A DNA stretch of 64,000 nucleotides from positions 147,994,001-148,058,000 of the forward strand of contig OZ024743.1 in NCBI GenBank assembly GCA_964016885.1. Direction: 5' to 3'. Of this stretch, positions 19,467 to 61,053 are shown piece after piece; positions within the stretch are counted from its first letter, which is position 1, and each line of letters starts with the position of its first letter. The translations under genes were made by a program, and so were the position numbers. The stretch is from Eledone cirrhosa (taxonomy: Eukaryota). Below the pieces are notes generated by a model. That model was given only the letters and a program-made list of their open reading frames with translations. It was not told the origin of the DNA and did no database searches.

Positions 19467-19468
<2 letters not shown>

Positions 19469-19728
19469 TTTCTTTATTAACCACAAGGGTTTACATAAAG
19501 TAGACATTAAGGACAGTGCAGGACAATGCAGGACGGTACAAATGGGCATTTCTGCGTGTAAAAAAACAAAAACAGAGGATGTAACAAAAATAACAATGAA
19601 AATAACAATGAAAAATTCCCCAATAGGGGGGAGACTTCGGAGGGACATTTGTGGAGAAAGCCCAGTAAAAAGCCACAATGACCCTGACCACCAAGGCAAG
19701 TGCCCTCTCCCAGTTTTCCACCTTTAGT

Positions 19729-22700
19729 TTACAGATATATACTCAGAGTCGGCCCATTCACTCGGGCCATTCTTGCTTCTCTCACCCATCTTTCAACAAA
19801 ATGCTGGGAAGAGAGCACTTCCTTCTCTACTCTGATTTTCCTTTTCAAATGAAATTTGAAAAAGTCAATCAGAGCATCACCGAAGAGGTAAGTGCTCGTC
19901 TTCAGCCCTTTCAAACGTGTCCACCATACTATCTCTTTCGCCATGGCCACCAGACAGATAAAAACTGCCTGCCCTTCCCGGCTAAAGGAGGAGGGCGGGG
20001 CAATCCTCACGATAGACTCAGATGATAGCTGGATCCGTCCTAAACGCGACAGCAGGTGTTCGACATAAACCCACAAGTCAGCAATTTTCGGACACTGGAC
20101 GAGTGCGTGCAGGACGGTTTCGTCGCCCTGCGCGCATCTCGGACATGCCCGGCTGACGGCACCTCCATGCCTGTAGAGTTTATCCCGAACTGGCAAGGCT
20201 CCTCGGTAGCACTGCCAGGCCAGAGATTTCTGGAAGTTGTCCATAGGCCCTGGCCCGAAAGTTCTTCCGAAGAGATTGGCTAGTTGATTTTCGTCGACGC
20301 CTAGAGTTTCCCCAAGTACGTCGTCGCTCTTCCCCTCCACTAATCCTCTATAGAACGCCGAGGTGGAGTTTCCACCGATCACATTGCCCGATTGGTCGAG
20401 GGCTGTGAGCGCCTGAAGACATTCCAGTCTCCAGGCGCTCCCTCTCGGTCTTCGCTTGACCCAGGACTGCAGCTCCGTCAAGGAAACGAGCTGGGGAAAA
20501 ACGCGTCTAGCAAACGGCGACCACACCTGATCACCGTCGAGGAAGAGGTGTATATGTCGTAGCCTGAGCGCGTGCCTGCGCATCATCAGCCACGGCATGC
20601 CCAGCCCTCCACGTAGCGGGTGTTGACAACAGATGGACCGCCTGACCATCGGAGCACGTCCCTTCCACAAAAAGCGAAAGAGCAAACGCTCCAGCGCAGT
20701 CAGGCGAGGCTTAGGACAAGGTACGACGGTTAGGCGGTAGCAGATGACAGACGCGATGTACGCGTTAGCCACCTCCGCTCGACCTTTCAGGGATAGCTTC
20801 CTCTCCGCCCATTTCTGGGTGAGAGAAGCCACCCTGCTCGTCACCTCGTCCCAGTTTTTGTCCGTCTGGAGGTCCGGACCGAACCAGACCCCTAGCAATT
20901 TAACCGGTCCGTCCGTCCAGCGCCCGACGACGCTGTTGGACGGCATGGACCTGCCTCTCCAGGTGCCGAGCTGCAGGCCCACTGACTTTTCCTGGTTGAT
21001 CATTGCTCCTGTCACCGCTTCGTATTCTCTTAGTGTAGTGCCGATCGCCTCGATGTGTTTGGCGTTCGACACCACTACGGTGACATCGTCCGCATATGCT
21101 GACACGGATCTTCCGCATCCTAGTTCGCGCGGGACTCCCCTCAACGTCTCCAGTTTGTGCAGTAATGGCTCGAGAGTCAATACGTACAAGAGGGACGAGA
21201 GGGGACATCCTTGGCGGACCGAGCGCATGATGTTGAACGGTTCCGACAGGTGACCGTTCACTCTCACCACAGAGCAGATGTCGCTGTGCATGGCAGCGAT
21301 CCAGCCTCTGAAGACGGGCCCAAAGCCAGCCGCCCTCAGGACTGCCGCTAGGTAACGATGGTCGACCCTATCGAAAGCTTTCGACTGATCTAAATTGATC
21401 AAGGACCCACCCGTGCCAGGTTCCCTAGCTACCCTCTCTACGATGTATCGCATGAGGTGGAGGTTGTCGTGGATGGATCTGTCGGGAATGGCGCATGTCT
21501 GCGCCTCTCCCACCAGACCACCAACGACAAGCGCCAACCTCTTTGCTAGCACCTTGGCCAAAATCTTAAACTCTGTGTTTAGCAGAGTTATGGGCCGGAA
21601 ATTGTCTATGTTATCCCCCTTGTTCGGATCCTTTCTCAGCAGTGCCACCGCTCCTCGGCTCACAGAACTGGGAATTCTCCCGTTCTGTTGCCAGTTGCAG
21701 TAGACGTCCGCCAAGAGGCCTCCGAACAAGTCTGGCATCTGTACGTAAAGTTCATAGGGCAGACCATCCAAACCAGGCGATTTACCCCTTGTGCAGCCAG
21801 TCATTGCCTCCCGTACTTCAGCGGCTGTTATCGGCTTTTCGCAACACTTCGCCTCAGTGGCCGAGAGCCGCGGCAGTCCGTCGAGGTAGACACTAAAGTC
21901 CATCCCTCTACCCGGCCCCCCGCTGCCCCCGAACAGCTGAGCGAAGTGTCGCTGAAAAGCTTCACACATTTGCCCGGGATCGAGTAGCATGCGCCCGTCG
22001 TGGTCCACCAAAGACCGGATCGTGGCTTTGTTGCCACGACGCGCCTCCGCCACTCGGGCCCATTGAACGGCTTTCGTCCCCTCGTGTCTGAGAGCACGCA
22101 CCCTAGCTCTGACAACGCAGCCTTCGTGCTTTGCATTGAAGAATTGGTCAAGGGCCAATTTCGCCGCAAGCACGTCGGTCGCAATGCCTTTGCTAAGCGC
22201 CTCGTCTAATTTTCTAACTAGTTCTCCCTCTGCTCTATTTTTCTCTATTGCTAAAGCCTTACTAAACCTAATCGATTCTATTCTAATCGCTCTTTTCAGA
22301 GCAAACCACCACTTGTTGTTGACGATGGCCCCCGTCAACGCCCGCTTAACTAGTTCGCTAATCCGGTCTCTGTAGGCCTTGCGCGCTGGTAAGGACGCGT
22401 TTAGCTTCCAGTAGCCGGGTCCTCGTCTATGAAGCCTATCTAAGTCAAGCACACAGGTCACGAATTTGTGGTCCGTGTAGCTGACTATCTTGAATTGTGG
22501 ACAGCCTATGCTAGACCTATCTATTTCCCTACAAAATACTCTATCTAGATATGATCTGGATGACCCTATGCGGTTTGTCCAAGTCCACATTGGCACATTC
22601 GGGAAATCCAATCGGTACCTGTCAGACAGTTCAAAACGCCTGAGCAGGTTGGTGAGGCTCTTGCACCCTCCACCCCTATCCGCTAATCCCACACAGTCCC

Positions 22701-23148
22701 AGCGTGCATCTAAGATCCCGTTCCAGTCGCCCACTAACACTAAAGAGCGGGACGTTCCAAGAAAGGTCTCCAGACGCCGGAAGAAATCAGGCCGCCCTGC
22801 TCCTGTCGGGGCATAGACGGCCACTAGCCTGAAAGCTTGCCCGTCTCCGCTGGTCACGTCCAGCACCACCAGCTTACCCTCTGGGTCCAGGAAGATGGCC
22901 CGTATGGCGAGATCCAAACCTCTCCGAAAAAGCACAGCAACTCCTCCACCGGATCCAGGACGGCTGGGAGATGCGTACACATCGTAGCCGCCGAAGATCG
23001 GTGCGAAGGCCCGTGCTTCGGAGATTCTGGTCTCGCTGATGGCCACTACATCTATGTTTAGTGACCTGAGGTCGTTGAGCAGGTGACCCTGCTTCCATGA
23101 CGACCCCAAGCCACGCGCATTTATGCTGCCTATTCTGAGTGAGGTCAT
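19729..23148 (-). CDS. ORF2: APE endonuclease - reverse transcriptase - C-terminal zinc-binding (zf-RVT-like) domain, 1139 aa
   Basis: APE motifs SINARG, ISETR, VYAP, GDWN, YLDRVF, TDH; RT motifs KSPGLDG, FRPITLLN, LDQSKAFDRV, QGCPLS, YADD; CPRC..ETVLHALVQC. Confidence 0.96.
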   Translation of the reverse strand: MTSLRIGSINARGLGSSWKQGHLLNDLRSLNIDVVAISETRISEARAFAPIFGGYDVYASPSRPGSGGGVAVLFRRGLDLAIRAIFLDPEGKLVVLDVTSGDGQAFRLVAVYAPTGAGRPDFFRRLETFLGTSRSLVLVGDWNGILDARWDCVGLADRGGGCKSLTNLLRRFELSDRYRLDFPNVPMWTWTNRIGSSRSYLDRVFCREIDRSSIGCPQFKIVSYTDHKFVTCVLDLDRLHRRGPGYWKLNASLPARKAYRDRISELVKRALTGAIVNNKWWFALKRAIRIESIRFSKALAIEKNRAEGELVRKLDEALSKGIATDVLAAKLALDQFFNAKHEGCVVRARVRALRHEGTKAVQWARVAEARRGNKATIRSLVDHDGRMLLDPGQMCEAFQRHFAQLFGGSGGPGRGMDFSVYLDGLPRLSATEAKCCEKPITAAEVREAMTGCTRGKSPGLDGLPYELYVQMPDLFGGLLADVYCNWQQNGRIPSSVSRGAVALLRKDPNKGDNIDNFRPITLLNTEFKILAKVLAKRLALVVGGLVGEAQTCAIPDRSIHDNLHLMRYIVERVAREPGTGGSLINLDQSKAFDRVDHRYLAAVLRAAGFGPVFRGWIAAMHSDICSVVRVNGHLSEPFNIMRSVRQGCPLSSLLYVLTLEPLLHKLETLRGVPRELGCGRSVSAYADDVTVVVSNAKHIEAIGTTLREYEAVTGAMINQEKSVGLQLGTWRGRSMPSNSVVGRWTDGPVKLLGVWFGPDLQTDKNWDEVTSRVASLTQKWAERKLSLKGRAEVANAYIASVICYRLTVVPCPKPRLTALERLLFRFLWKGRAPMVRRSICCQHPLRGGLGMPWLMMRRHALRLRHIHLFLDGDQVWSPFARRVFPQLVSLTELQSWVKRRPRGSAWRLECLQALTALDQSGNVIGGNSTSAFYRGLVEGKSDDVLGETLGVDENQLANLFGRTFGPGPMDNFQKSLAWQCYRGALPVRDKLYRHGGAVSRACPRCAQGDETVLHALVQCPKIADLWVYVEHLLSRLGRIQLSSESIVRIAPPSSFSREGQAVFICLVAMAKEIVWWTRLKGLKTSTYLFGDALIDFFKFHLKRKIRVEKEVLSSQHFVERWVREARMARVNGPTLSIYL

Positions 23149-23183
23149 GTTTAAAATAGAGTGGAAAAGATGGGAAAGACCAC

Positions 23184-25280
23184 TTACCGTACTTTTGGTA
23201 GAGGAGGGATGGTTTTTACATCCCTTTTCACTTGATCGTCTGGTGAAGGGACCGTTGAATCGTCCCTTCGGCTGGTCGTCGGCTCTTCTAAGAGAATGTC
23301 TGAATATACTCTTCGATTAATGGTTCCTCCTAGGTCCCTGAAATCACCAACTGCGTTGGGGAATTTCGTTTTAATGTTTGTGTATTGTTTCTGTGCTATT
23401 TTTAGCAGTCTTATGTTAGTTGGCGTTTTGATTGGTGCTGGTATTATGTAGTCCTGTTGTGAAATGTCTGTGTGTTCAATTATGTAAGTCATTAGTTTCT
23501 TGTTGTGTGTGTTTATTGCCGTGCATTTGTTTTTCTGGGGGTGGGGTGTGGTTCTGCTATTTTCTTGTCGTTGTTGCTGGGTGTGTGTGTTTTGTTGTTG
23601 TGTTTGCGATGTTGGTGCTTGTGGTGGTGGTGTTGAAGGTGTTGTTGGCGGTGGGGTTGTTGCCGGTGGTGATGGTGGTGCTGGTGTGGGTGGTGATGGT
23701 GTTGGTGGTGTTGCTGCTGTGGGTCTCTTTGCAGTAGACTTTACCCTTTTCTCATTTCTTTCCTCCCTTTTCAAAGGCGACGATGCGCTGCTTCTGCGTT
23801 TGTGCCTTCTTGCGACCTTTTGCCATCCCTCTCCCACCTCACACTCCATGTCTGATTCTGTAAGGTCGGGGAGGGGTACCAGCTCCACTCTTTCACTTGT
23901 TGTTGTTGGTGATGTTTGCACTGGAGTCTCTGTTGCAGCTGCATTTGGTATTGCTGTTGTTGTTGTTAATATTTCCACTGCTGCTGCTGTCTTTGATTTC
24001 CGTGGAGTGGGTATGGGTGCCACGGACCTATCGTTCCTGGTTGCCGCTTGTCCTGTTGCTGGTAGCCGTGGAGCCGGATTCGGAAGGAGGGGGGTTTTCT
24101 CCTTTCTCAGGGTCTTCTCGTTGCAGAAGGCCCTGAGGTGAGTCTTCGATCCACAGCGAAAGCATTTCGGGCGTTTGCCCTCAACACTTATGGGCAGTTG
24201 AGTGCCGTTATCGAAGTCTATCACATCCGGGATAGCTTCGATGCACTCCTGGTTGGTTTGGATTAGCATCTCAATGGAGGAGCCGACCCAATCTTCTCTT
24301 ACTTTTTTCTGTACTTGCAGTACAGTTGTTTTGTCCTCGATTCCGACGAGGACAGACGCGGCCAGCCAAGAAGGGGTCATTCCGGGGGGGACGTGGGTCA
24401 GTTTGACCCTCACAATTTTTTGCCCGCAGTAGGAGGGCACCAACACCATTTCCTCGCTCCTTAGGGTCACTACTGATTGGGCCTTTGCCTCCTGGGGTGT
24501 GGCAAAAAGTACGTCTACGGTGGCGTATTTTTTGCCTCGGGTGATGTGCGTTTTCCTCTGCCACACAGACCCCAAGGCTTTTTGTATTTGGGCCTCTGTG
24601 GCTCTTTCCACCCTACGGGATTTTGTACTTACTGTACGGTACGTGACCGTACAGTGCTCTTGGGTTTCGAAAAAATTTTTCGCTGCCTTGCAGATTGCTC
24701 GGTGTCCGTTCTTTGTCACCATCTTCTTCGCTTCCTCTAATTCCTCATTTGTTATGAGGATTGTTTCCAAGTTTTTCGCAATACCTGCAAATGAGATTGG
24801 TTTTTCTCTGCTGTTGTTGTTGTCGTCAGAGCTGCTGGTACTTTTGTTGTTGCTGCAGGTACTACGACTACTGCCTCCGCAGCTGTTGCTGTGGTTGTTG
24901 TTGGTGTTGCTGCTGCTAATGCTGTTGTTGTTTATGCTGCTGGTGATGCTGTTGCGGCTGCTACTGTTGTTTTCATTGTCACTGTTGCTGTTGTTATTAC
25001 GGCTGCTACTGCTATTATTCCTGACGTCAGACGAATGAACTGGGTTTTCGTATTTCCCGCACACCTGTTTCGTCGCTGTCGTCGTCGTCGTGGAGAAACC
25101 TTGCACGCTTTGCACGAGACTTTTCTTTTCTTTCGTCGCTTGCGAAAGAGAAGGGAGGGAGAGAGACACATTTAAAGAAGGGAGGGAGAGAGACAATCTT
25201 CTCTCTGCTGTAGTGATGATTGAGGAAGAAGAAGACGGAATGAGTGGGAGTGACGTATGAAATTTCTTTTTCGTAGCCAT
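23184..25280 (-). CDS. ORF1: gag-like nucleic-acid-binding protein with CCHC zinc knuckle, 698 aa
   Basis: Asn/Ser-rich N-terminus, SFA motif, putative RRM-like region, CFRCGSKTHLRAFC (CX2CX4HX4C), Thr/Pro-rich linker with GWQKV, conserved C-terminal block; directly upstream of ORF2. Confidence 0.9.
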   Translation of the reverse strand: MATKKKFHTSLPLIPSSSSSIITTAERRLSLSLPSLNVSLSLPSLSQATKEKKSLVQSVQGFSTTTTTATKQVCGKYENPVHSSDVRNNSSSSRNNNSNSDNENNSSSRNSITSSINNNSISSSNTNNNHSNSCGGSSRSTCSNNKSTSSSDDNNNSREKPISFAGIAKNLETILITNEELEEAKKMVTKNGHRAICKAAKNFFETQEHCTVTYRTVSTKSRRVERATEAQIQKALGSVWQRKTHITRGKKYATVDVLFATPQEAKAQSVVTLRSEEMVLVPSYCGQKIVRVKLTHVPPGMTPSWLAASVLVGIEDKTTVLQVQKKVREDWVGSSIEMLIQTNQECIEAIPDVIDFDNGTQLPISVEGKRPKCFRCGSKTHLRAFCNEKTLRKEKTPLLPNPAPRLPATGQAATRNDRSVAPIPTPRKSKTAAAVEILTTTTAIPNAAATETPVQTSPTTTSERVELVPLPDLTESDMECEVGEGWQKVARRHKRRSSASSPLKREERNEKRVKSTAKRPTAATPPTPSPPTPAPPSPPATTPPPTTPSTPPPQAPTSQTQQQNTHTQQQRQENSRTTPHPQKNKCTAINTHNKKLMTYIIEHTDISQQDYIIPAPIKTPTNIRLLKIAQKQYTNIKTKFPNAVGDFRDLGGTINRRVYSDILLEEPTTSRRDDSTVPSPDDQVKRDVKTIPPLPKVR

Positions 25281-25518
25281 GTTGTTTTTTGTTTAAAATG
25301 AATATTGGGTACAAAACCCCAATAACTGGTTATTTAGCCCCGAAGGGCCAAATAACGGACAGAAAGACCCCTCTCACGAGGAGGAGGGTGTCTTTATCAA
25401 CAATTTGGTTCAAGTTTTAAACAATTTACAATTGTTTTAACGGTTAAAAATTACTATACCTTACAGAGCCGAGCCTCCGTCAACCATGGCATTCAATAAT
25501 AATAATAATAATAATAAT

Positions 25519-28500
25519 GATGATTTCTTTATTAACCACAATGGTTTACATAAAGTAGACATTAAGGACAGTACAGGACAATACAGGACGGTACAAATGG
25601 GCATTTCTGCGGGTAAAAAACAAATACAGAAGTGGTAACAAAAAAATAACAATGAAAAATTCCCCAATAGGGGGGAGACTTCGGAGGAACATTTGTGGAG
25701 AAAGCCCAGTAAAAGGCCACAGTGACCCTGACCACCAAGGCAAGTGCCCTCTCCCAGTTTTCCACCTTTAATTTACAGATATATACTCAGAGTAGGCCCA
25801 TTCACTCGGTCCATTCTTGCTTCTATCACCCATCTTTCAACAAAATGCTGGGAAGAGAGCACTTCCCTCTCTACTCTGATTTTCCTTTTCAAATGAAATT
25901 TGAAAAAGTCAATCAGGGCATCACCGAAGAGGTAAGTGCTCGTCTTCAGCCCTTTCAAACGTGTCCACCATACTATCTCTTTCGCCATGGCCACCAGACA
26001 GATAAAAACTGCCTGCCCTTCCCGGCTAAAGGAAGGGGGCGGGGCAATCCTCACGATGGACTCAGCTGATAGCTGGATCCGTCCCACACGTGACAGCAGG
26101 TGTTCGACATAAACCCACAAGTCAGCAATGCTCGGACACTGGACGAGTGCGTGCAGGACGGTTTCGTCGCCCTGTGCGCATCTCGGACATGCCCGGCTGA
26201 CGGCACCTCCATGCCTGTAGAGTTTATCTCGAACTGGTAAGGCTACTCGGTAGCACTGCCAGGCCAGAGATTTCTGGAAGTTGTCCATAGGCCCCGGCCC
26301 GAAAGTTCTTCCGAAGAGATTGGCTAGTTGATTTTCGTCGACGCCTAGAGTTTCCCCAAGTACGTCGTCGCTCTTCCACTCCACTAATCCTCTATAGAAC
26401 GTCGAGGTGGAGTTTCCACCGATCACATTGCCCGATTGGTCGAGGGCTGTGAGCGCCTGAAGACATTCCAGTCTTCAGGCGCTCCCTCTCGGTCTTCGCT
26501 TGACCCAGGACTGCAGCTCCGTCAAGGAAACGAGCTGGGGAAATACGTGTCTAGCAAACGGCGACCACACCTGATCACCGTCGAGGAAGAGGTGGAGATG
26601 TCGTAGACTGAGCGCGTGCCTGCGCATCATCAGCCACGGCATGCCCAGCCCTCCACGTAGCGGGTGTTGAAAACAGATGGACCGCCTGACCATCGGAGCG
26701 CGTCCCTTCCACAAAAAGCGAAAGAGTAAACGCTCCAGCGCAGTCAGGCGAGGCTTAGGACAAGGTACGACGGTCAGGCGGTAGCAGATGACAGACGCTC
26801 GACCTTTCAGGGATAGCTTCCTCTCCGCCCATTTCTGGGTGAGAGAAGCCACCCTGCTCGTCACCTCGTCCCAGTTTTTGTCCGTCTGGAGGTCCGGACC
26901 GAACCAGACCCCTAGCAATTTAACCGGTCCGTCCGTCCAGCGTTCAACGACGCTGTTGGACGGCATGGACCTGCTTCTCCAGGTCCCGGGCTGCAGGCCC
27001 ACTGACTTTTCCTGGTTGATCATTGCTCCTGTCACCGCTTCGTATTCTCTTAGTGTAGTGCCGATCGCCACGATGTGTTTGGCGTTCGACACCACTACGG
27101 TGACATCGTCCGCATATGCTGACACGGATCTTCCGCATCCTAGTTCGCGCGGGATTCCCCTCAACGTCTCCAGTTTGTGCAGTAATGGCTCGAGAGTCAA
27201 TACGTACAATAGGGACGAGAGGGGACATCCTTGGCGGACCGAGCGCATGATACTGAACGGTTCTAAAGGTGACCGTTCACTCTCACCACAGAGCAGATGT
27301 CGCTGTGCATGGCAGCGATCCAGCCTCTGAAGACAGGCCCAAACCAGCCGCCCTCAGGACTGCCGCTAGGTAACGATGGTCGACCCTATCGAAAGGTTTC
27401 GACTGATCTAAATTGATCAAGGACCCACCCGTGCCAGGTTCCCTAGCTACCCTGTCTACGATGTATTGCATGAGGTGGAGGTTGTCGTGGATGGATATGT
27501 CGGGAATGGCGCATGTCTGCGCCTCTCCCACCAGACCAACAACGACAAGCGCCAACCTCTTTGCTAGCACCTTGGCCAAAATCTTGAACTCTGTGTTTAG
27601 CAGAGTTATGTCCGGAAATTATCTATGTTATCCCTCTTGTTCGGATCCTTTCTCAGCAGTGCCACCGCTCCTCGGCTCACAGAACTGGGAATTTTCCTGT
27701 TCTGTTGCCAGTTGTAGTAGACGTCCGCCAAGAGGCCTCCGAGCAAGTCTGGCATCTGTACGTAAAGTTCATAGGGCAGTCCATCCAAACCAGGCGATTT
27801 ACCCCTTGTGCAGCCATTCATTGCCTCCCGTACTTCAGCGGCTGTTATCGGCTTTTCGCAACACTTCGCCTCAGTGGCTGAGAGCCGCGGCAGTCCGTCG
27901 AGGTAGACACTAAAGTCCATGCCTCGACCCGGCCCGCCGCTGCCCCCGAACATCTGAGCGAAGTGTCGCTGAAAAGCTTCACACATTTGCCCGGGATCGT
28001 GTAGCATGCGCCCGTCGTGGTCCACCAAAGACCGGATCGTGGCTTTGTTGCCACGACGCGCCTGCGCCACTCGGGCCCATTGAACGGCTTTCGTCCCCTC
28101 GTGTCTGAGAGCACGCACCCTTGCTCTGACAACGCAGCCTTCGTGCTTTGCATTGAAGAATTGGTCAAGGGCCAATTTCGCCGCAAGCACGTCGGTCGCA
28201 ATGCCTTTGCTAAGCGCCTCGTCTAATTTTCTAACTAGTTCTCCCTCTGCTCTATTCTTCTCTGTTGCTAAAGCCTTACTAAACCTAATGGATTCTATTC
28301 TAATCGCTCTTTTCAGAGCAAACCACCACTTGTTGTTGACGATGGCCCCCGTCAACGCCCGCTTAACTAGTTCGCCTATCCGGTCTCTGTAGGCCTTGCT
28401 CACTGGTAAGGACGCGTTTAGGTTCCAGTATCCGGGTCCTCGTCTATGAAGCCTATCTAAGTCAAGCACACAGATCACGAATTTGTGGTCCGTGTAGCTG

Positions 28501-31500
28501 ACTATCTTGAATTGTGGACAGCCTATGCTAGACCTATCTATTTCCCTACAAAATACTCTATCTAGATATGATCTGGATGATCCTATGCGATTTGTCCAAG
28601 TCCACATTGGCACATTCGGGAAATCCAATCGGTACCTGTCAGACAGTTCAAAACGCCTGAACAGGTTGGTGAGACTCTTGCACCCTCCACCCTATCCGCT
28701 AATCCCACACAGTCCCAGCGTGCATCTAAGATCCCGTTCCAGTCGCCCACTAACACTAAAGAGCGGGACGTTCCAAGAAAGGTCTCCAGACGCCGGAAGA
28801 AATCAGGCCGCCCTGCTCCTGTCGGGGCATAGACGGCCACTAGCCTGAAAGCTTTCCCGTCTCCGCTGGTCACGTCCAGCACCACCAACTTACCCTCTGG
28901 GTCCAGGAAGATGGCCCGCATGGCGAGATCCAAACCTCTCCGAAAAAGCACAGCAACTCCACCCCCGATCCAGGACGGCTGGGAGATGCGTACACATCGT
29001 AGCCGCCGAAGATCGGTGCGAAGGCCCGTGCTTCGGAGATTCTGGTCTCGCTGATGGCCACTACATCTATGTTTAGTGACCTGAGGTCGTTGAGCAGGTG
29101 ACCCTGCTTCCATGACGACCCCAAGCCACGCGCATTTATGCTGCCTATTCTGAGTGAGGTCATGTTTAAAATAGAGTGGAAAAGATGGGAAAGACCACTT
29201 ACCGTACTTTTCGTAGAGGAGGGATGGTTTTTTTACATCCCTTTTCACTTGATCGTCTGGTGAAGGGACCGTTGAAGCGTCCCTTCGGCTGGTCGTCGGC
29301 TCTTCTATGAGTATCTCCGAATATACTCTTCGGTTGATAGTTCCTCCTAGGTCTCTGAAATCACCAACTGCGTTGGGGAATTTCGTTTTAATGTTTGTGT
29401 ATTGTTTCTGTGCTATTTTTAGCAGTCTTATGTTAGTTGGCGTTTTGATTGGTGCTGGTATTATGTAGTCGTGTTGTGAAATGTCTGTGTGTTCAATTAT
29501 GTAAGTCATTAGTTTCTTGTTGTGTGTATTTATTGCCGTGCATTTGTTTTTCTGGGGGTGGGGTGTGATTCTGCTATTTTCTTGTCGTTTTTGCTGGATG
29601 TGTGTGTTTTGTTGTTGTGTTTGCGATGTTGGTGCTTGTGTTGGTGGTGTTGAAGGTGTTGTTGTTGTTGTTGGCGGTGGGGTTGTCGCCAGTGGTGATG
29701 GTGGTGCTAGTGTGGGTGGTGATGGTGTTGGTGGTGTTGCTGCTGTGAGTCTCTTTGCAGTAGACTTTACCCTTTTTTCATTTCTTTCCTCCCTTTTCAA
29801 AGGCGACGATGCGCTGCTTCTGCCTTTGTGCCTTCTTACGACCTTTTGCCATCCCTCTCCCACCTCACACTCCATGTCTGATTCTGTGAGGTCGGGGAGG
29901 GCTTCCTGCTCTACTCTTTCACTTGTTGTTGTTGGTGATGTTTGCACTGGAGTCTCTGTTGCAGCTGCATTTGGTATTGCTGTTGTTGTTGTTGTTAATA
30001 CTTCCACTGCTGCTGCTGTTATTGATTTCCGTGGCGTGGGTATGGGTGCCACGGACCTATCGTTCCTGGTTGCCGCTTGTCCTGTTGCTGGTAGCCGTGG
30101 AGCCGGTTTCGGAAGAAGGGGGGTTTTCTTCTTTCTCAGGGTCTTCTCGTTGCAGAATGCCCTGAGGTGAGTCTTCGATCCACAGCGAAAGCATTTCGGG
30201 CGTTTGCCCTCAGTACTTATGGGCAGTTGAGTGCCGTTATCGAAGTCTATCACATCCGGGATAGCTTCGATGCACTCCTGGTTGGTTTGGATTAATATCT
30301 CAATGGAGGTGCCGACCCAATCTTCTCTTACTTTTTTCTGTACTTGCAGTACAGTTGTTTTGTCCTCGATTCCGACGAGGACAGACGCGGCCAGCCAAGA
30401 AGGGGCCATCCCGGGTGGGGGGGGGGACGTGGGTCAGTTTGACCCTCATAATTTTTTGCCCGCAGTAGGAGGGCACCAACACCATTTCCTCGCTCCTTAG
30501 GGTCACTACGGATTGAGCCTTTGCCTCCTGGGGTGTGGAAAATAGTACGTCTACGGTGGCATATTTCTTGCCTCGGGTGATGTGTGTTTTCCGCTGCCAC
30601 ACAGACCCCAAGGCTTTTTGTATTTGAGCCTCTGTGGCTCTTTCCACCCTACGGGATTTTGTACTTACTGTACGGTACGTGACCGTAGAGTGCTGTTGGG
30701 TTTCAAAACATTTTTCCGCTGCCTTGCAGATTGCTCGGTGTCCAGTTTTTGTCACCATCTTCTTCGCTTCCTCTAATTCCTCATTTGTTATGAGGATTGT
30801 TTCCAGGTACTTCACGATACCTGCAAACGAGATTGGTTTTTCTTTGCTGCTGTTGTTGTTGTTGTTGTCGTCAGAGCTGCTGTTACTTTTGTTGTTGCTG
30901 CAGGTACTACGACTACTGCCGCCGCCGCCGCCGCTGTTGCTGTGGTTGTTGTTGTTGTTGCTGCTGCTAATGCTGTTGTTGTTTATGCTGCTGCTGATGC
31001 TGTTGCGGCTGCTACTGTTGTTTTCATTGTCACTGTTGCTGTTGTTATTACGGCTGCTACTGCTATTATTCCTGACGTCAGACGAATGAAATGGGTTTTC
31101 GTATTTCCCGCACACCTGTTTCGTCGTCGTCGTCGTGGAGAAATCTTGCACGCTTTGCACGAGACTTTTCTTTTCTGTCGTCACTTGCGAAAGAGAAAGG
31201 AGGGAGAGAGACACATTTAAAGAAGGGAGGGAGAGAGACAATCTTCTCTCTGCTGTAGTGACGATTGAGGAAGAAGAAGACGGAATGAGTGGGAGTGACC
31301 TATGAAAATTATTTTTCATAGCCATGTTGTTTTTTTGTTTAAAATAAATATTGGCCACAAAACCCCAATAAGCAGTTATTTAACCCCGAAGGGCCAAAAA
31401 CCGGGCAGAAAGACCCCTCTCACGAGGAGGAGGGTGTTTTTGTCTACAAGCTGGTAAAAGTTTTAAACAATTTACGATTGTTATAGCGGTCAAAATTTAC

Positions 31501-31540
31501 AATACCTTACATAGCCGAGCCTCCGTCAATCATAGCATTC
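25519..31540 (-). mobile_element. Full-length Tx1-like copy B, same subfamily as A, ORFs disrupted
   Basis: Colinear with copy A end to end; frameshifts near 30420, 29230, 28960, 28690, 27610 and 27340, 21-bp in-frame deletion near 26798, premature TGA at 26475. Confidence 0.95.
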
Positions 31541-31584
<44 letters not shown>

Positions 31585-31588
31585 TAAT

Positions 31589-34500
31589 GTTTTCTTTATT
31601 AACCACAAGGGTTTACATAAAGTAGACATTAAGGACAGTACAGGACAATACAGGACGGTACAAATGGGCATTTCTGCGTGTAAAAAAACAGCGGATGAAA
31701 TAAAATAACAATGAAAAATTCCCCAATAGGGGGGAGACTTCCGAGGGACATTTGTGGAGAAAGCCCATTAAAAGACCACAGTGGCCCTGACCACCAGGGC
31801 AAGTGCCCTCTCCCAGTTTTCCACCTTTAATTTACAGACACATACTCAGAGAAGGCCCATTCATTCGGGCCATACTTGCTTCTCTCACCCATCTTTCAAC
31901 AAAATGCTGGGAAGAGAGCACTTCCCTCTCTACCCTGATTTTCCTTTTCAAATGAAATTTGAAAAAGTTAATCAGGGCATCGCGAAGAGGTAAGTGCTCG
32001 TCTTCAGCCCTTTCAAACGTGTCCACCATACTATCTCTTTCGCCATGGCCACCAGACAGATAAAAACTGCCTGCCCTTCCCGGCTAAAGGAAGGGGGGCG
32101 GGGAAATCCTCACGATGGACTCAGCTGATAGCTGGATCCGTCCTACACGTGACAGCAGGTGTTCGACATAAACCCACAAGTCAGCAATGCTCGGACACTG
32201 GACGAGTGCGTGCAGGACGGTTTCGTCGCCCTGTGCGCATCTCGGACATGCCCGGCTGACGGCACCTCCATGCCTGTAAAGTTTATCCCGAACTGGCAAA
32301 GTACCCCGGTAGCACTGCCAGGCCAGGGATTTCTGGAAGTTGTCCATAGGCCCCGGCCCGAAAGTCCTTCCGAAGAGATTGGCTAGTTGATTTTCGTCGA
32401 CGCCTAGAGTTTCTCCAAGTACGTCGTCGCTCTTCCCCTTCACTAATCCCCTATAGAACACCAAGGTGGAGTTTCCACCGATCACATTGCCCGATTGGTC
32501 GAGGACCGTGGGCGCCTGAAGACATTCCAGTCTCCAAGCGCTCCCTCTCGGTTTTCGCTTGACCCAGGACTGCAGCTCCGTCAAGGAGACGAGCTGGGGA
32601 AAAACGCGTCTAGCAAACGGCGACCACACCTGATCACCGTCGAGGAAGAGGTGGTGATGTCGTAGCCTGAGCGCGTGTCTGCTCATCATCAGCCACGGCA
32701 TGCCCAGCCCTCCACGTAGCGGGTGTTGACAGCAGATTGACCGCCTGACTATCGGAGCGCGTCCCTTCCACAAGAAGCGAAAGAGTAAACGCTCCAGCGC
32801 AGTGAGGCGGGGCTTAGGACAAGGTACGACGGTCAGGCGGTAGTAGATGACGGACGCGATGTACGCGTTAGCCACCTCCGCTCGACCTTTCAGGGATAGC
32901 TTCCTCACGGCCCATTTCTGGGTGAGAGAAGCCACCCTGCTCGTCACCTCGTCCCAGTTTTTGTCCGTCTGGAGGTCTGGACCGAACCAGACCCCTAGCA
33001 ATTTAACCGGTCCGTCTGTCCAGCGCCCGACGACGCTGTTGGACGGCATGGACCTGCCTCTCCAGGTGCCGAGCGCAGGCCCACTGACTTTTCCTGGTTG
33101 ATCATTGCTCCTGTCACCGCTTCGTATTCTGTTAGTGTAGTGCCGATCGCCTCGATGTGTTTGGCCTTCGACACCACTACGGTGATATCGTCGGCATATG
33201 CTGACACGGATCTTCCGCATCCTAGTTCACGCGGGATTCCCCTCAACGTCTCCAGTTTGTGCAGTAATGGCTCGAGAGTCAATACGTACAATAGGGACGA
33301 GAGGGGACATCCTTGGCGGACCGAGCGCATGATGTTGAACGGTTCCGAAAGGTGACCGTTCACTCTCACTACAGAGCAGATGTCGCTGTGCATGGCAGCG
33401 ATCCAACCTCTGAAGACGGGCCCAAAGCCAGCTGCCCTCAGGACTGCCGCTAGGTAACGATGGTCGCCCCTATCGAAGGCTTTCGACTGATCTAAATTGA
33501 TCAAAGACCCACCCGTGCCAGGTTCCCTAGGTACCCTCTCTACGATGTATCACATGAGGTGGAGGTTGTCGTGGATGGATCTGTCGGGAATGGCGCATGT
33601 CTGTGCCTCTCCCACCAGACCACCAACGACAAGCGCCAACCTCTTTGCTAGCACCTTGGCCAAAATCTTGAACTCTGTGTTTAGCAGAGTTATGGGCCTA
33701 AAATTATCTATGTTATCCCCCTTGTTCGGATCCTTTCTCAGCAGCGCCACTGCTCCTCGGCTCACAGAGCTGGGAATTCTCCCGTTCTGTTGCCAGTTGC
33801 AGTAGACGTCCGCCAAGAGGCCTCCGAACAAGTTTGGCATTTGTACGTAAAGTTCATAGGGCAGACCATCCAAACCAGGCGATTTACCCCTTGTGCAACT
33901 AGTCATTGCATCCCGTACTTCAGCGGTTGTTATCGGCTTTTCGCAACACTCCGCCTCAGTGGCCGAAAGCCGCGGCAGTCCGTCGAGGTAGACACTAAAG
34001 TCCATCCCTCGATCCGGCCCGCCACTGCCCCCGAACAGTTGAGCGAAGTGTCGCTGAAAAGCTTCACACATTTGCCCGGGATCGAGTAGCACTCGCTCGT
34101 CGTGGTCCACCAAAGACCGGATCGTGGCTTTGTTGCCACGACGCGCCTCCGCCACTCGGGCCCATTGAACGGCTTTCGTCCCCTCATGTCTGAGAGCACG
34201 CACCCTAGCTCTGACAACGCAGCCTTCGTCCTTTGCATTGAAGAATTGGTCAAGGGCCAATTTCGCTGAGCGCTTCATATAATTTTCTAACTAATTCTCC
34301 CTCTGCTCTATTTTTCTCTATTGCTAAAGTCTTACTAAACCTAATGGACACTATTCTAATTGCTCTTTTCAGAGCAAACCACCACTTGTTGTTGACGATG
34401 GCCCCCGTCAACGCCCGCTTAACTAGTTCGCTAATCCGGTCTCTGTAGGCCTTACGCGCTGGTAAGGACGCGTTTAGCTTCCAGTAGCCGGGTCCTCGTC

Positions 34501-37471
34501 TATGAAGCCTATCTAAGTCAAGCACACAGATCACGAATTTGTGGTCCGTGTAGCTGACTATCTTGAATTGTGGACAGCCTATGCTAGACCTATCTATTTC
34601 CCTACAAAATACTCTATCTAGATATGATCTGGATGACCCTATGCGATTTGTCCAAGTCCACATTGGTACATTCGGGAAATCCATTCGGTACCTGTCAGAC
34701 AGTTCAAAACGTCTGAGCAGGTTGGTGAGACTCTTGCACCCTCCTTCCCTATCCACTAATCCCACACAATCCCAGCGTGCATCTAAGATCCCGTTCCAGT
34801 CGCCCACTAACACTAAAGAGCGGGACGTTCCAAGAAAGGTCTCCAGACGCCGGAAGAAATCAGGCCGCCCTGCTCCTGTCGGGGCATAGACGGCCACTAA
34901 CCTGAAAGCTTGCCCGTCTCCGCTGGTCACGTCCAGCACCACCAACTTACCTTCTGGGTGCAGGAAGATGGCCCGTATGGCAAGATCCAAACTTCTCCGA
35001 AAAAGCACAGCAACTCCTCCCCCGATCCCGGACGGCTGGGAGATGCGTACACATCGTAGCCGCCGAAGATCGGTGCGAAAGCCTGTGCTTCGGAGATTCT
35101 GGTCTCGCTGATGGCCACTACATCTATGTTTAGTGACCTGAGGTCGTTGAGAAGGTGGCCCTGCTTCCATGACGACCCCAAGCCACGCGCATTTATGCTG
35201 CCTATTCTGAGTGAGGTCATGTTGAAAAGGAGTGGAAAAGATGGGAAAGACCACTTACCTTACTTCTCGTAGGGGAAGGACTGTTTTTCCATCCTTTTCA
35301 CTGCTTGTGGCCTCCTCAGGAAGGATGTCCTTATAAATCCTCCTGGAGAGTGCTTGTCGGAAGTCTCCGATGTCTTTGGGGAATTTTTGTTTTAGTGTCA
35401 TGTACGTTTTCTGTGTGATGCGAGTGATTTGTATGTGTGGAGGTGGTGTGAATTTTGGGGTTGTTGTGTAGTCTTTTTCTGTGATGCTGGTTTTGTGTTG
35501 GATGTAGTGTAATAATTGCTTGTTGTTCAAATTTAATGCTGTGTAGTGTGTATCGTTTTGGTTGTTTTGTTTTGTTTGCGTTTGTTGTGGGTTTGTTTCT
35601 GCTTCGCATTTTGGTGACTTTTGTGGTGTAGGTGATGGTGGTGCTGGGGTTAATGATGGTGATGGTGTTGGTGTTTGGGTTGATGGGGTTGGTGATGCTG
35701 GTGTGGATGGTGGCATATCTGTCCTAACTTTTTTGTTTCTTAATTTACTTGTTTCCCTCTGTATTTTGTTTTTGGAGGGGGAAGGAAGAGAATTTTTTTT
35801 TTTTGTTTCTTTTTTTTTTTCCGGATATCGTTTCCCACTCCTCGTCGTCACAATCTGTCTCCAGTTGTGATAGGCCGGGGAGTGGAAAATCCTCCACAGC
35901 CGTTAGTTTTGGTTGTGGTGTGGTGGATGGTGTAGGCGCTGGTGCTAGTTATGAAGCGTTGGGTGGTGGTGGTGTTGGTTTTGCTGGTGGTGGTAGTGGT
36001 GTTGGTTTTGCTACTGTTGCTGGGGTTGTTGCTGTTATAGTTGCTTCTGTTGTTGCTGCTACAGTTGTTGTTGCCATCTCCTCTACTGGTGGTGTTGATG
36101 GTTGTGTCACTGGGGTGGGTAGGAGAGGTGGCCTCAACCTTTTAGCCTGAGGGCAGAAAGCCCTTAGGTGGGTTCCTTCACCACAAACGACACACCTAGG
36201 TCTTCTGCCCTCGACAATTACCGAGAGGTGGCTGCCGTCAGTGAGGTCTATTACCTCTGGGATCTCCTCAATGCTTTTTTGGTCCGCTTGGATCAGGAGC
36301 TCCATCCCAGATCCGGACCAGTTTTCCTGCTTTTCTTTTGCTATTGCTATTATTTTCGTGTTGGCTTCGATGCCGGCGAGGACAGCCGCTATTAGCCAGG
36401 GAATTTCGATGGCCGGTGGAACGTGGGTCACCCTGATCTTTACGAGTCTCTGGCCACAATAGCTTGGGACGAGTGTGAAGTCGTCGCTTTTTAATGGGGC
36501 CATGGAGTGTTCTCTAGCCTCCTCTGGTGTTTCAAAGAACAAATCCACGGTTCCATACTTTTGCCCACGTCTGATGTGGGTTTTTCTTGCCCACACATGT
36601 CCCAAAGCTTTTTGGATTTGGGACTCGGATGCCCGTTCCACTCGGCGCGATTTTACATTTATTGTTCTATACGACACGGTGCATAGGCGCCGATGCTACA
36701 TTTTATTAGGTGGGGGGTGGGGGTGGGGGGTGAGGTTGAACCTGTACCCATCTTTCTTTACCATTTGTTTGGCATTTTCTAAATCCTCCTGAGTTACCGT
36801 GAATGCTTCAAACTGTTTTGCTACTATGGCGAAACTGAGGGTCGGTTTTATAATGTCATTGTTGTTGTTGTTGCTATCGTTATTTGTGTTAATATTAATT
36901 TTAGTTTCAGTTGTGGTGGTGGTGACGTCAGTCGTCTTTGGTGCGGAAGAGTCCATTTTGCTTGATTTCATTTCGACATCACGAGTTAATTTATTTTTTT
37001 CTTCTTTTGTTTCTGTTGTCGCGGTGGTGGTGGGGGTGGTGGTTGTCGCGGTGGTGGTGGTGGTGGTGGAGGCTTTAACACCTGCAGTCATTGGTAATGG
37101 CGGGAAATGAATGTCTGCCTGAGACAAATTTAAAATATTGCTACTGCTTATATTTTTTTTTTGTGTTGGCAAACGTAGTAACATTTACAATGGTGGTGTC
37201 GGTGTGAGGTGTTAATTTGTGAGGAAGGCTTTCAGCTGGTTGGTGCAGAGGTGAATTAGCCATTTTTTTCAAAGAAAAATTTGTGATAATAATAAAAGTT
37301 TAAATTTTGGGCACAAGGCCCCAATCTTTTTGGGTGTCCTTTTCGGAAAACAATGTATGTGCGCTTATAAACAGTTAACAATAAAATTTTCCATAAATGA
37401 CAATTTTTAACAAACGGAAATAACAAACTTTTGCGGAGCTCACGATGATACGATTTACTACGTAGGTCGCC
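31589..37471 (-). mobile_element. Full-length Tx1-like copy C: A-like ORF2/3'UTR but a different 5'UTR and divergent ORF1; ORFs disrupted
   Basis: 31589-35260 nearly identical to copy A; upstream ORF1 pieces (start ATG 37263; 36696-37184, 35949-36677, 35255-35851) are homologous mainly at protein level (CVVCGEGTHLRAFC knuckle). Confidence 0.93.
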
Positions 37472-37551
<80 letters not shown>

Positions 37552-37561
37552 TAATAATAAT

Positions 37562-37989: not shown

Positions 37990-38013
37990 AATAATAATAA
38001 TAATACTAATAAT

Positions 38014-38201
38014 AATTGTTTCTACTTTAGGCACAAGGCCAGCAATTATCAGTACATTACTGGTACTTTATTTTATCGACCTCGTAAGGATGAAAGGCAA
38101 AGCTAACCTCGGCGGGTTTGAACTGAGGTCATAAAGGGCCGTAACTGTTTGCTGCAAAGCATGGAGTTCGACCCTCTACCGATACTGCCGAACCACCGCC
38201 C
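38014..38201 (-). mobile_element. tRNA-derived SINE, copy 3, inserted in the (AAT)n tract
   Basis: Reverse complement of the 981-1168 family; CTAATAATAA on both flanks. Confidence 0.9.
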
Positions 38202-38214
38202 TTTTCTAATAATA

Positions 38215-56139: not shown

Positions 56140-56330
56140 TTATATATTATATATATTTATTTGTATTATTACCCATATAGGGAGATATATGTATATATAA
56201 ATATTGTTTGTGATACATATGGATATATATATATAGTATATATGTTTCAGAGGAGTCCCATACTTTCATCTGTACTACTACTACTACTAATACGACTACT
56301 ACTACTACAACTACTACTACTAATAATAAT

Positions 56331-59210
56331 GATTTCATTTATTGGCCACAAGGGCCGACATATAGGGGGCAATACAAAAGACTGGGACATTGGGGTTTTA
56401 CAGAAAAATCGAGTAAACAATATGAATAACAATAACAAAGTAACAATAACAAAGTAACAATAAAGTAACAAGAAAATTACAAGAAAAAATGGGGGGGAGG
56501 GATGACCACCTAGGGTTCGCTCAGGTACCCCACCAGTCCTGAACGACCCGACGCTTCGAGAGAACCCTGGAAGGGCACTCCTCTCCTCCCCAAATTTACC
56601 TACCTACAGCCGCATGACCAGCGTAGGCCCACTCACACGGGCAATTCTCGCCATATTTACCCACCTTTCAGCAAATGTACTGGGGGGTAGCATTTCTCTC
56701 ACCACCCTCAGCTTCCTTTCCAAGTGAAACTTGAAAAAGATGATGAGGGATTGGCCGGAGAGAAAAGTGTCTGTCTTCAGTCCTTTCAACCTCGTCCACC
56801 ATACAACCTCTTTCGCTACTGCCACCAGACAGAGGAAAATTGCCTGCCCTTCCTGGCCAAAAGAAGGCGGCGGGTCGATCTTCACTATGGGCTCGGCCTA
56901 TAGCCGTATCCGTTCTACACACGACAACAGCTGTTCAACATAACTCCACAAGTCAGTAATGCACGGACACTGGACGAGTGCGTGCAGAACGGTTTCGTCG
57001 CACTGCGCGTTTCTCGGGCAGGTCCGTCTGATAGCACTTCCGTGCCTGTAGAGTTTATCTCGAACCGCCAGTGCCCCCCGGTAGCACTGCCAAGCGAGGG
57101 ACTTTGGGAAATTATCCATCGTCCCCGGCTCGAAAGTCCTCCGGTACAGACTGGTTAGTTCGACTTCGTTGACTCCCAGAGCCTCTCCGAGTGCGTCGTC
57201 GCACTTCCCCACCACTAATCCTCTATAGAACTCGAGAGTGGAAGTTCCACTGACCGCGTTGCCCGCCTAGTAGAGGGCAGTGAGTGCCTGGCAACATTCC
57301 AGATGCCAGTCACCCAGTCTCGGTCTCTTCTTGACCCAGGACTGCAACTCAGTCAAAGAAACGAGCTGCGGAAAGACCCGTCTGACAAACGGCAACCACA
57401 CCTGTTCACCGTTTAGGCAGAATATCTGGAGATTCCACAGCTTCAGCGCGTGCATGCGAATCATTAGCCACGGCATGCCCAGCCCTCCACGTAGAGGGTG
57501 CTAGCAGCAGATGGACCGCATCACCACTGGAACCTGACCCCTCCACAAGAATTTGAAGAGCAGCCGCTCCAAGATGGCGAGGCGCAAACGGGGGCAAGGG
57601 ACGACAGTCAGACGGTAGTAGATGACGGACGCGATGTACGCGTTCGCCACCTCCGCCCGACCTATCAGTGATAGCTTCATCCTAGCCCATTTCTGGGTGA
57701 GACTGACTACTCTGCCCGTCACCTCGTCCTAATTCTTAACCACCTGGAGGTCTGGCCCGAACCAAACCCCGAGCAACTTTACCGGTCCGTCCGTCCAGGG
57801 CCTAACGACGCTGTTGGACGGCATGGACTTGCCTCTCCAGGTGCCCAGTTGCAAGCCCACTGACTTTTCCTGGTTAAGTTTCGCTCCCGTCTACCTTTCA
57901 TACTCCTCCAATAAGTTGCCGACCTCCTCGATTTCTGAGGTGTCCGACACCATCACGGCGATGTCGTCCGCATAAGCCGACACAGCCTTTCCGCGTCCGG
58001 TTCGAGCGGGATGCCCTGCAACAGCTCCAGCTTCTGTAGTAAAGGCTCGAGAGTCAATACGTACGATCGGGAGACCTGAAACGGCTCCGAGAGGTGGCCA
58101 TTAATTTTGACCATCGAGCAGGTTTCGCTGTGTATTGCAGCGATCCGGCTTCTGAAGACGGGGGCCGAAGCCAGCCGCCTTGAGGACAGCCTCCAGGTAC
58201 CGATGGTCGACCCTATCGAATGCTTTCGATTGATCTAAATTGATCAGAGCACCACCGAAGCCAGGTTTACACCCTACCCTTTCTATGATGTATCGCATTA
58301 GGTGGAGGTTGTCGTGTATGGACCTGGTTGGGATTGCGCAAGTTTGCGCCTCCCCAACCAAATCCCCGACGACAAGCGCCAACCTCTTCGCTAACACCCT
58401 AGCCAAAATATTAAACTCTGTGTTGAACAGAGTTATGGGCCTGAAATTGTCTAATGTGTCCCTCTTGTTCTCGTCTTTACTTATCAGCGTCACTACGCCC
58501 CGGCTCACAGAACTGGGAATACTCCCGTTTTGCTGCCAGTTGCAGTAGAGGGTTTCGAGGAGATTGGAGAACAAGTCTGGCATATTTACGTAAAGCTCGT
58601 AGGGCAGACCATTCAAACCGGGTGACTTTCGCCTCATGCAGCCGACAAGGGCATCCTGAATCTCGGCTGAAGTAATTGGCCTTTCGCAGGGCCCAGCGTC
58701 AGCCGGGTAGGGACTGAAGTCCGCCACCATCTCTGACCCGCCACTTCCCCCGAACAACCGAGCAAAATGTTGGCGAAAGGCATCACACATCCTCTTGGAA
58801 TCGCTCAGCTTGTGCCCGTCTCGGTCCGCCAAAGACCGAATCGTGGTTTTATTACGACGCTGCGCCTCTGCCACGCGGGCCCATCGAACAGCTTTGGTTC
58901 CCTCGTTTCTCAGAGCACGCGCCTTAGCTCTGACAATGCAACCTTCGTGTTTCGCATTGAAGAAATGGTCTCATGCCATTCTCGCCGCTAGCACATCAGT
59001 TGCAATGCCACTACCAATAGCCTCGTCTAACTTATCTACCAACTCCCCCTCCTTTCTATTTTTCTCTAATGCTACTTCTTTGCTAAACTCTATCGACATT
59101 ACTCTAATCTCTCTTTTGAGAACCCCCCTATTGTTGACGATTCCCCCTGTCAACTTTTTTCTTAACTAAATTGTTGACCTGGTCCCTGTAAGCCGTACGT
59201 GCCGGAAATG
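56331..59210 (-). mobile_element. 5'-truncated, decayed Tx1-like element of a related subfamily with (ATT)/(AGT)n tail
   Basis: ORF pieces 58101-58874, 57501-57722, 56898-57215 and 56604-56885 homologous to copy A ORF2; tail 56273-56330. Confidence 0.92.
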
Positions 59211-61053
59211 ATAAGAATGCAAGATAGTACTCAGTTAAAAGTGATCAATAATAAAAAAGCATGTTACCGTGTAACCAACATTTGTGAGAATCGTGGTGGG
59301 CATTGTTAAACTGCCTGTTATTTTATAATTTTTAAGAGCATAATGTTCTTAACTTTGTACGTGGATAATATTAATGCATTGTGTCAAGATATATTTCTCT
59401 GTAAGGCTTAGATTGCATAACTTTGTTTCATTTAAATACGAGTTTTGCTCTTTCTTAATGTTCAGAATTATAGTTATATTGTTTCATTTACTGCCTCCGC
59501 ATACATTGGATATTGAAATCTATATTAATTGAATTTGATATCGAAATCTATTTCTGAAAGAATATGGGCGTGTGTTTGAATTTTAATGTATATACTGTTT
59601 ATCACTGCAATTTCCAGCAAATTATTCTCGCTGATATATATATGTAGTTGCTCTATTTCCTCTAAATACGAATACTGTCAGGAAATTGCTGAAAGGTAGA
59701 CGTCATGATTGGTTGTTGTTGGATATGTGGGATGTCATATAAAGGTTATATTTATATGTATGTGTGTAATACAAATCGTTCTTTAAACATGTCTAAAATC
59801 TCACAGTTTAAGGGTTAGTGCGCCTCGTGCTCTCAACGGATAGAAGGTAAAATACGTTGCCCTGGAAGGTGGTGAGGGAGACGCACTAAAAGACATATTA
59901 TAACTCGCCCGGATCGCTCTTGCATGTAGCCAATTCTTTCCCGGCAGAGGTGAGAATGGATGTGATCTGCAGGCCAAGAACATCGAAATTCTCCGCTGCT
60001 ATAGGCTCGACCACAAACTTATCTGAAAGTGACTGATGCTTCACTGACGTGCAGTGAAACCTGAGTAATTCGCCGGATGGACTTGGTTGTTGCTGAAGAA
60101 GGTGTCGCCAATTGTAGCATCCATGATGAGGGTCATATCACCGCGGAAAGCGAAGATTGTCTAGCCTTTTACTGACCCCTCAAGCCAAACCACTGGCTCG
60201 AGTTAGGAAGGAAAGCTCGTAACGTTCAGCAACCGACACTATAACGGCATGAGAGTGGGTGGAGGCCGATGTTGTCCACATTGGATCCATAACGGCATTT
60301 GTCAGGCTCACATATATGGATGCTGAGCCTAAGGGAAATAACAATGCGAAAACAGTCGCAGTCCAGTTGATTGACCGTCGAGAGTGATGGTACATCGTTA
60401 AGCTAGGCACCACAGTGTGGTTGGGAGGCCGAGTAAAAATATGCCAGACGATGCTGATCAAACTTGTATACCAGCCTCTCAGAGGATGGCGTCCCATTTG
60501 TTTTAAATAAACTGGAGGTCTACAGAAGCAAGAGGGGTTGACAACAACATGGTAGAGGCCGAGCTGGTTCGCATATTGCGTTGACCACCTGGTGTTCCCC
60601 TTCATGTTCCATTGTGTTTTGGAGAATCCTGTTGATGAGGACACAGTAAAAGGTCACTAATGAAAGAAATATCAGTAAGGCCAGTGAGACCGGAGAACGA
60701 AGGTCGGTACCATCATATCTAAAGTGTAAGTTGGCCTGTTGCAGTCCGGTTTCATCGAACCGCGCGTTACATATCTTCTCAGAAGCCTGTCGGATACAGG
60801 TGACAAGGTCTGTGAGAAGAGTTATGTGACTATAACAAAGGGAACTGCAGAAATTATATAGAAGTTTGGGTATGATGAAGAAGTTCCTTAACGATCAGGT
60901 TCAGTCGACCGGGTATCTATCATCTTCTTGTCCTTTTGTCGACATGGCATCATTTTTTCGACAGTCAAATCACTGTATCGTAAAGAGAGATAAACCCGGT
61001 TTACACCTGTCTTAGGTGCAATCGTACAACACTTTATAATACAGACGCACACG

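Follow-up and report, generated by a model that had tools for sequence, protein, structure and literature searches.

A hybrid LINE family in Eledone cirrhosa, possibly founded by splicing between two (ATT)n-targeting LINE families

Comparison of neighbouring LINE copies in the genome of Eledone cirrhosa indicates that one family is a hybrid, in which the 5'UTR and ORF1 of one LINE family (E) are joined to the end of ORF1, the spacer, ORF2 and the 3'UTR of another (C). The window analysed here is a stretch of 64,000 nt (assembly GCA_964016885.1, contig OZ024743.1, positions 147,994,001 to 148,058,000 of the forward strand), and it holds three LINE copies, A, B and C, which lie head-to-tail on the minus strand and are each flanked by (ATT)n (Table 1). 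On the sequence evidence A and B are the hybrid and C is a native parent; the original prediction, which had taken C for the recombinant, thus had the direction reversed. A single event that put an E front on a C back would account for all the relations among the families. As to how this happened, we think it probable that the hybrid was born by splicing of a read-through transcript from an E-to-C tandem, followed by retrotransposition.

Table 1. Features of the LINE copies in the window (positions are those of the window)
Feature	Position	Strand	Description
Copy A	19467..25494	-	full-length hybrid LINE, both ORFs open; E-derived 5'UTR/ORF1, C-derived ORF1 end, spacer, ORF2 and 3'UTR
A ORF1	23184..25280	-	698 aa; CX2CX4HX4C knuckle; predicted RNA-binding core
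A ORF2	19729..23148	-	1139 aa; APE endonuclease, RT, zf-RVT
Hybrid junction in A	23230..23232	-	E sequence to 23231, C sequence from 23230; shared AG leaves 2 nt of ambiguity
C-derived GTAAGT donor motif in A	23182..23187	-	overlaps the A ORF1 stop
Segment 3' of the A ORF2 stop	19695..19722	-	could form a long-range helix with donor and spacer, to which it is complementary (predicted; duplexfold -40.7 kcal/mol, top site of the element)
Copy B	25519..31540	-	older, broken copy of A's hybrid lineage; junction 29248/29247
Copy C	31589..37471	-	native parent family member, source of ORF2 and 3'UTR; ORFs broken here (stops, frameshifts)
C ORF1	35255..37263	-	~56% aa identical to A in a 185-aa core; broken in this copy
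CAG/T site in C ORF1	35300..35303	-	hybrid resumes here; weak cryptic acceptor if the join was made by splicing
C donor motif AG/GTAAGT	35253..35258	-	at the ORF1 stop; ORF2 ATG (35220) lies 38 nt downstream
(ATT)n target microsatellite 5' of C	37472..37561	-	similar tracts at 31541-31588, 25495-25518 and 19419-19466
Family D copy, 5'-truncated	56323..59211	-	sister family; ORF2 ~74% nt identical; outgroup; 3' boundary approximate

When A and C were compared in 150-nt windows, identity ranged from 0.45 to 0.69 over the 5' 2.17 kb and was at least 0.91 from ~35301 on, where it was mostly 0.93-0.99 with dips at indels and at the end of the 3'UTR. A and B were 0.83-1.0 identical along their whole length, with no step. 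The change between A and C was therefore stepwise and not gradual, as had been predicted, but near-identity starts at 35301/35300, ~45 nt upstream of the ORF1 stop codon (35257-35255), and not at the stop itself. Upstream of the step, ORF1 of C is homologous to that of A and B at the protein level, and both peptides that had been quoted in support of this were present. The 5'UTR of C had been called different; it is indeed divergent, but the two are distant homologues with a common TTGGG..CCAAA motif and not unrelated sequences. This motif was seen in the 5'UTRs of A, C, E and D (window ~25300-25330 and ~37300-37325), and could form a hairpin just before the ORF1 start. A mis-assembly near ~35260 was considered as a source of the step and rejected: 29 of 30 loci have the same C junction, and contigs from public runs span the junctions, one from run X7 covering that of C (35051-35567, 12 differences) and one from run X5 that of A.

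Both 5' cassettes were found in many copies, which confirms that one RT module occurs with two kinds of ORF1 and 5'UTR. A 701-nt probe from C ORF1 gave at least 40 matches at 98-100% among 2,244 candidates, and a 701-nt probe from A ORF1 at least 40 genomic matches at 100% identity among 1,078. A 22-nt motif from the ORF2 start occurred 4,868 times; typing of 55 copies from the first 57 listed, all on a single contig (C1), gave 39 of C type and 16 of A type. The motif at the exon end shared by E and A occurred 2,512 times and was of A type in 99 of the first 100 listed, so that the hybrid junction appears to be carried by about 2,500 copies, compared with 86 exact matches to the ORF2 start of family E. 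The combination of C-type ORF1 with the same ORF2 is multi-copy as well, 29 of the 30 best C-type loci, the window's own included, having the same junction. In contrast, C-type ORF1 on another ORF2 was absent from these 29 of the 30 best hits (the remaining one is internally deleted) and from the 39 C-type copies.

The direction of the swap follows from family E, first of all from a full-length element upstream of a C copy (locus L176) that has an A-type 5'UTR and ORF1 and an ORF2 only ~80% identical at the protein level. Identity between E and A was ~0.84-0.96 upstream of the junction and 0.74-0.90 downstream. Of the 86 E ORF2 starts, 30 were fetched; in each the preceding ORF1 end was E/A-like, though more diverged in one, and in none was it of C type. 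Mean p-distances, calculated from 70 of 84 copies after 14 had been left out for incomplete cover, were 0.070 (A-E), 0.383 (A-C) and 0.397 (C-E) for the ORF1 core, and 0.040 (A-C), 0.164 (A-E) and 0.163 (C-E) for the first 690 nt of ORF2. The separate ORF1 and ORF2 trees that had been proposed as a check were incongruent for A. Built from 23 hand-picked rows and rooted on family D, they placed A with E on ORF1 (support 99) and with C on ORF2 (support 100), and AU tests on the same rows rejected A+C for ORF1 (p=0.001) and A+E for ORF2 (p=0.0002). The branching order within the A+E clade of the ORF1 tree does not separate A nested in E from A beside E. The most similar ORF2 sequences sampled from one family were 3.7% apart for E, against 0.3% for C and 0% for A. 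On these values A is likely the youngest of the sampled lineages, and E has likely died out.

Some copies depart from this pattern. Copy L128 has an A-type ORF1 and an ORF2 start that groups with young C copies, and the ORF1 cores of the E copies L257 and L260 fall inside the A cluster, which suggests further exchange among the families. At L294:1200-1530 an E-type ORF2 is preceded by a more diverged ORF1 (71-78% to E) with a GTAGGT variant at the place of the donor, possibly an older E sub-lineage.

The join was mapped to 2 nt, at 23231/23230 in A, which is 35301/35300 in C. With a slash at the junction, E reads GATCAAG/GTAAGTGA, C reads CAAGCAG/TGAAAAGG and A reads GATCAAG/TGAAAAGGG, the overlap being AG. 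The position in C is ~43 nt upstream of C's own donor. The join is thus offset: A ORF1 ends with the C-terminus of E and then has the homologous C-terminus of C, the 45 nt past the junction in A being continuous with C ORF1. This repeated C-terminal motif fits a fusion of E to C and not a homologous crossover. Spacer bases were common to old A and old C copies, and an extra G that restores C's frame was present in all 16 sampled A copies. Because the sampled A copies have both the same junction and the extra G, the hybrid likely arose once.

In the scenario that we favour, an E copy would have lain head-to-tail before a C copy, giving a read-through RNA across both. The predicted donor of E would then have been spliced to a cryptic CAG acceptor in C ORF1, with removal of an intron of ~6 kb comprising E ORF2, the E 3'UTR, (ATT)n, the C 5'UTR and most of C ORF1. 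Retrotransposition of the spliced RNA would have produced an element with the E 5'UTR and ORF1 joined to the last 15 ORF1 codons, ORF2 and 3'UTR of C. A later +1 G would have returned ORF1 to C's C-terminal frame, and the hybrid would have stayed active after E stopped. The common (ATT)n target probably builds the mixed arrays that enable such joins. The original prediction had proposed head-to-tail arrays as sites of exchange; arrays do remain a plausible substrate, but the donor at the join favours splicing over the template switching proposed there.

Splicing is supported by the E side of the join. E is cut exactly at AG/GTAAGT, which is the sole 9/9 donor among the 348 GT dinucleotides of the reference E copy. 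The donor was intact in 28 of the 30 best E loci and in 24 of 30 pattern hits, and the same motif was seen in 17 of the 19 family D junctions shown. Relative to the ORF1 frame the motif has phase 1 in families E and D but phase 2 in C; these different phases indicate that it is not kept for the protein and that the constraint is at the nucleotide level. In a null model of joins at 2 nt or more of microhomology in the last 60-600 nt of E ORF1, the exact donor was hit at a rate of 0.1-1.9%, according to the length of the stretch taken, and this figure concerns one event only, whose coincidence with a donor was recognised post hoc. The required arrangement exists: E was found directly upstream of C at 3 of 30 and at 2 of 39 C-type loci, one locus being in both sets (L003/L176, L011/L131, L024 and L165), and at L176, where a full-length E is followed by C, the stretch to be removed would be ~5,970 nt. 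The C side speaks against splicing: the CAG would be a weak acceptor, with a pyrimidine fraction of 0.45, more AGs lie just upstream, and 59% of the 186 YAG sites in C have a pyrimidine tract that is equal or better.

Searches for other products of these donors were negative, which counts against splicing. Donor-to-3'UTR joins had no match in the genome; other continuations of E's exon end numbered zero in a search that covers about half of the possible ones; and none of 11 odd continuations inspected was a splice product. No further donor-joined hybrid was present in 1.42 Mb of sequence, made up of the window and 299 fetched loci with some overlap among them. Two other roles for the donor were also rejected. 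For an intron that spans ORF2, with the ORF1-end donor and a CAG acceptor in the 3'UTR, no joined copy was found in the genome, and family E has CAC in place of this CAG. A mini-intron of 52-53 nt fusing ORF1 to ORF2 was found in no copy of A/C or of E, and in E and D its phases would not preserve the frame.

The same families often had internal deletions, 38 of them in 84 copies (L121-L175, L242-L269), 46-1124 nt long and mostly at 1-3 nt of microhomology; the neighbours L121 and L122, which have the same 511-nt deletion, represent one event. None of the 38 started at a strong donor, and the two that could be placed at GT..AG had poor donors.

The strongest competitor is an origin free of the spliceosome, which we regard as less likely. 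Here the RT would have switched from C RNA to E RNA at the common AG, or a microhomology-driven DNA deletion would have fused an E-to-C tandem, and selection would have kept joins with a whole ORF1 and the C spacer. For the L1 mosaics of the mouse, both template switching and recombination have been proposed (PMC3600994). Microhomology of 2 nt was the commonest class among the sporadic deletions (14 of 38), and this origin likewise predicts an AG on the C side. Moreover, at L249:3440-3460 (the same place as L202) an E sequence, up to element position ~2890, is joined to a C-type spacer and ORF2 with ~3 nt of microhomology and no splice signals, a single-copy join of E-to-C type made without splicing, and the ORF2 of L128 is mosaic. 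On the other hand, such an origin needs the 0.1-1.9% coincidence with the single perfect donor, and a homologous switch would have been easier inside the 83% identical ORF2, yet the actual join is offset and non-homologous.

More doubtful still is a jump of the RT onto E RNA ending at the donor. Such an RNA could be the 5' exon set free in the first step of splicing, or the product of trimming at a helix base; a variant is trans-splicing of separate E and C RNAs. Non-LTR RTs are known to jump onto RNA 3' ends in the case of R2, and no tandem would be required. Structure predictions are relevant here. By prediction, the segment 3' of the ORF2 stop base-pairs with the donor and spacer at about -41 kcal/mol; it is the best site in A, C and D and a marginal one in E (-35.2 against -35.0 elsewhere). 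In E, A and C alike, the predicted helix starts with the final G of the exon, not more than 1 nt from the donor, which fits an RNA trimmed there; by these predictions RNA structure could also mark the junction site, a point against splicing. However, a jump onto donor-ended RNA predicts the CAG on the C side only as microhomology, and an RT that simply skipped the helix would fuse E ORF1 to the 3'UTR of the same element, for which no example was found in the search that covers about half of the continuations. We also rejected the view that the need for a compatible helix pushed the crossover to a point upstream of C's donor, as cross-family duplexes were just as strong (-39.2 for the E donor with the A 3' segment, -35.0 for E with E).

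Finally, the reading in which C recruited a new 5'UTR and ORF1 onto the A/B ORF2 to escape silencing is very improbable: the identity step is real and 5'UTR recruitment, possibly bypassing repression, is described for mammalian L1 (PMC5381506), but the A/B cassette also sits on family E's ORF2, which would need a second event, the trees are incongruent for A, A has the ORF1 C-terminal segment twice, with 45 nt continuous with C ORF1 duplicating E's C-terminus, C-E distances scale with distances to D in both ORFs, and the loci described above never combine a C-type ORF1 with another ORF2.

Structurally, the A element has a separate ORF1 upstream of ORF2, no LTRs and a 3' end of AATAAA followed by (ATT)n, all features of L1-group non-LTR elements. 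Its ORF2 gave Pfam matches above cut-off to PF03372 (3e-14), PF00078 (1e-28) and PF13966 (7e-8), and its closest PDB match is human L1 ORF2p (E 1.6e-52). For ORF1, a Pfam search gave no family above its cut-off and a homologue search no hit among 529 candidates; its ESM Atlas features resemble those of CCHC/ZCCHC3 RNA-binding clusters (0.90-0.93), which we take as a lead only. As predicted, C starts immediately after (ATT)n, and this is general: (ATT)n lies before the 5' ends of all 30 A-type copies examined and of 29 among 30 C-type copies, and, among copies having a 5' end, (ATT)3 was found there in 14/14 of A, 34/36 of C, 12/15 of E and 5/5 of D. By sequence, families A, C, D and E are (ATT)n-targeting L1-group LINEs, for which the label Tx1-like is given by resemblance.

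Several observations concern the surroundings of these elements. A-type copies also form runs of five and three, ~6-7 kb apart, at 55427341-55453280 and 57089498-57101654 of contig C1, so that arrays longer than that of the window exist. A dispersed repeat of ~200 nt with (ATT)n at its end occurs at window 979-1186, 8940-9133, 37988-38203, 53257-53448 and 55950-56243; its tail precedes the C-type insertions L002, L006, L010, L014 and L023 and may supply target sites. The window also holds a fragment of a further ORF2 relative on the plus strand (43624-44022; 68-70% identical to A, B, C and D), as well as long inverted repeats (93-98%) and a dispersed repeat pair at 5241-6025, 41081-42059, and 11020-12877 and 44331-45438, possibly the ends of DNA transposons.

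New LINE 5' ends are usually credited to RT template switching, and spliced L1 copies have been called dead ends. If the splicing origin is true, read-through splicing of tandems would be an added way to found an autonomous LINE family. In a broader form, to which we give somewhat better than even chances, these LINEs keep a real donor at the end of ORF1, and the spliceosome shuffles promoter-ORF1 exons between families piled up in (ATT)n; an active autonomous family of ~2,500 copies would have been born in this way and the 5' module of a dying family rescued. Because a shared target builds mixed arrays, the choice of target site would be tied to the evolution of the families. With both parents in the genome and a 2-nt junction at a perfect donor, the hypothesis is directly testable with RNA. 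In the literature covered, mostly at the level of titles and abstracts and without most subscription journals or Repbase, we found no autonomous LINE family that had arisen through the splicing of one LINE family to another.

Among known systems, the mosaic L1 families of the mouse come close. L1MdTf and Gf are likewise autonomous LINEs that combine a 5' region of older origin with a younger 3' region, and in them too the hybrid has amplified (PMC3600994, PMC5381506), and the Eledone hybrid shares with Tf and Gf the incongruent 5' and 3' trees and the presence of both parents in the genome. The mechanisms put forward for the mouse families are DNA recombination, RNA/DNA heteroduplex and RT strand switching (PMC3600994), and the term 'splic' does not occur in the text available for that source or for PMC5381506. 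Unlike the mouse mosaics as described there, the Eledone hybrid has an offset join at a predicted splice donor and homologous UTRs; its cassette came from a sister family, whereas mammalian L1, cited in the original prediction, recruits unrelated 5'UTRs.

In mechanism, the proposed origin resembles that of the SVA families SVA_F1 (MAST2 exon 1) and pt_SVA_D6 (STK40 exon 1), which were founded when an exon lying upstream was spliced to an internal acceptor of the element (PMC6139936). As in these, the new 5' end would supply the promoter, and the junction of the hybrid lies at the predicted donor of its 5' parent E. On the C side there is a CAG whose pyrimidine tract is weak. From the account in PMC6139936, the SVAs are non-autonomous, took host exons and number 84-94 copies, whereas both parts of the Eledone hybrid are LINE-derived, both ORFs are encoded and copies number ~2,500. 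Microsatellite targeting is shared with the Tx1-clade elements Kibi, in (TC)n, and Koshi, in (TTC)n, endonuclease-RT LINEs that insert in specific microsatellites (PMC4494074); the text available from that source does not list (ATT)n, and kinship with the clade is suggested by resemblance. Human L1 SpIREs, described as evolutionary dead ends, are spliced within one element and lose the promoter or ORF1 (PMC5860796). They resemble the proposed origin of the hybrid in that a spliced LINE RNA is retrotransposed, but the hybrid has two parents, ~2,500 copies, at least 40 of them identical over the probe, and open ORFs in A.
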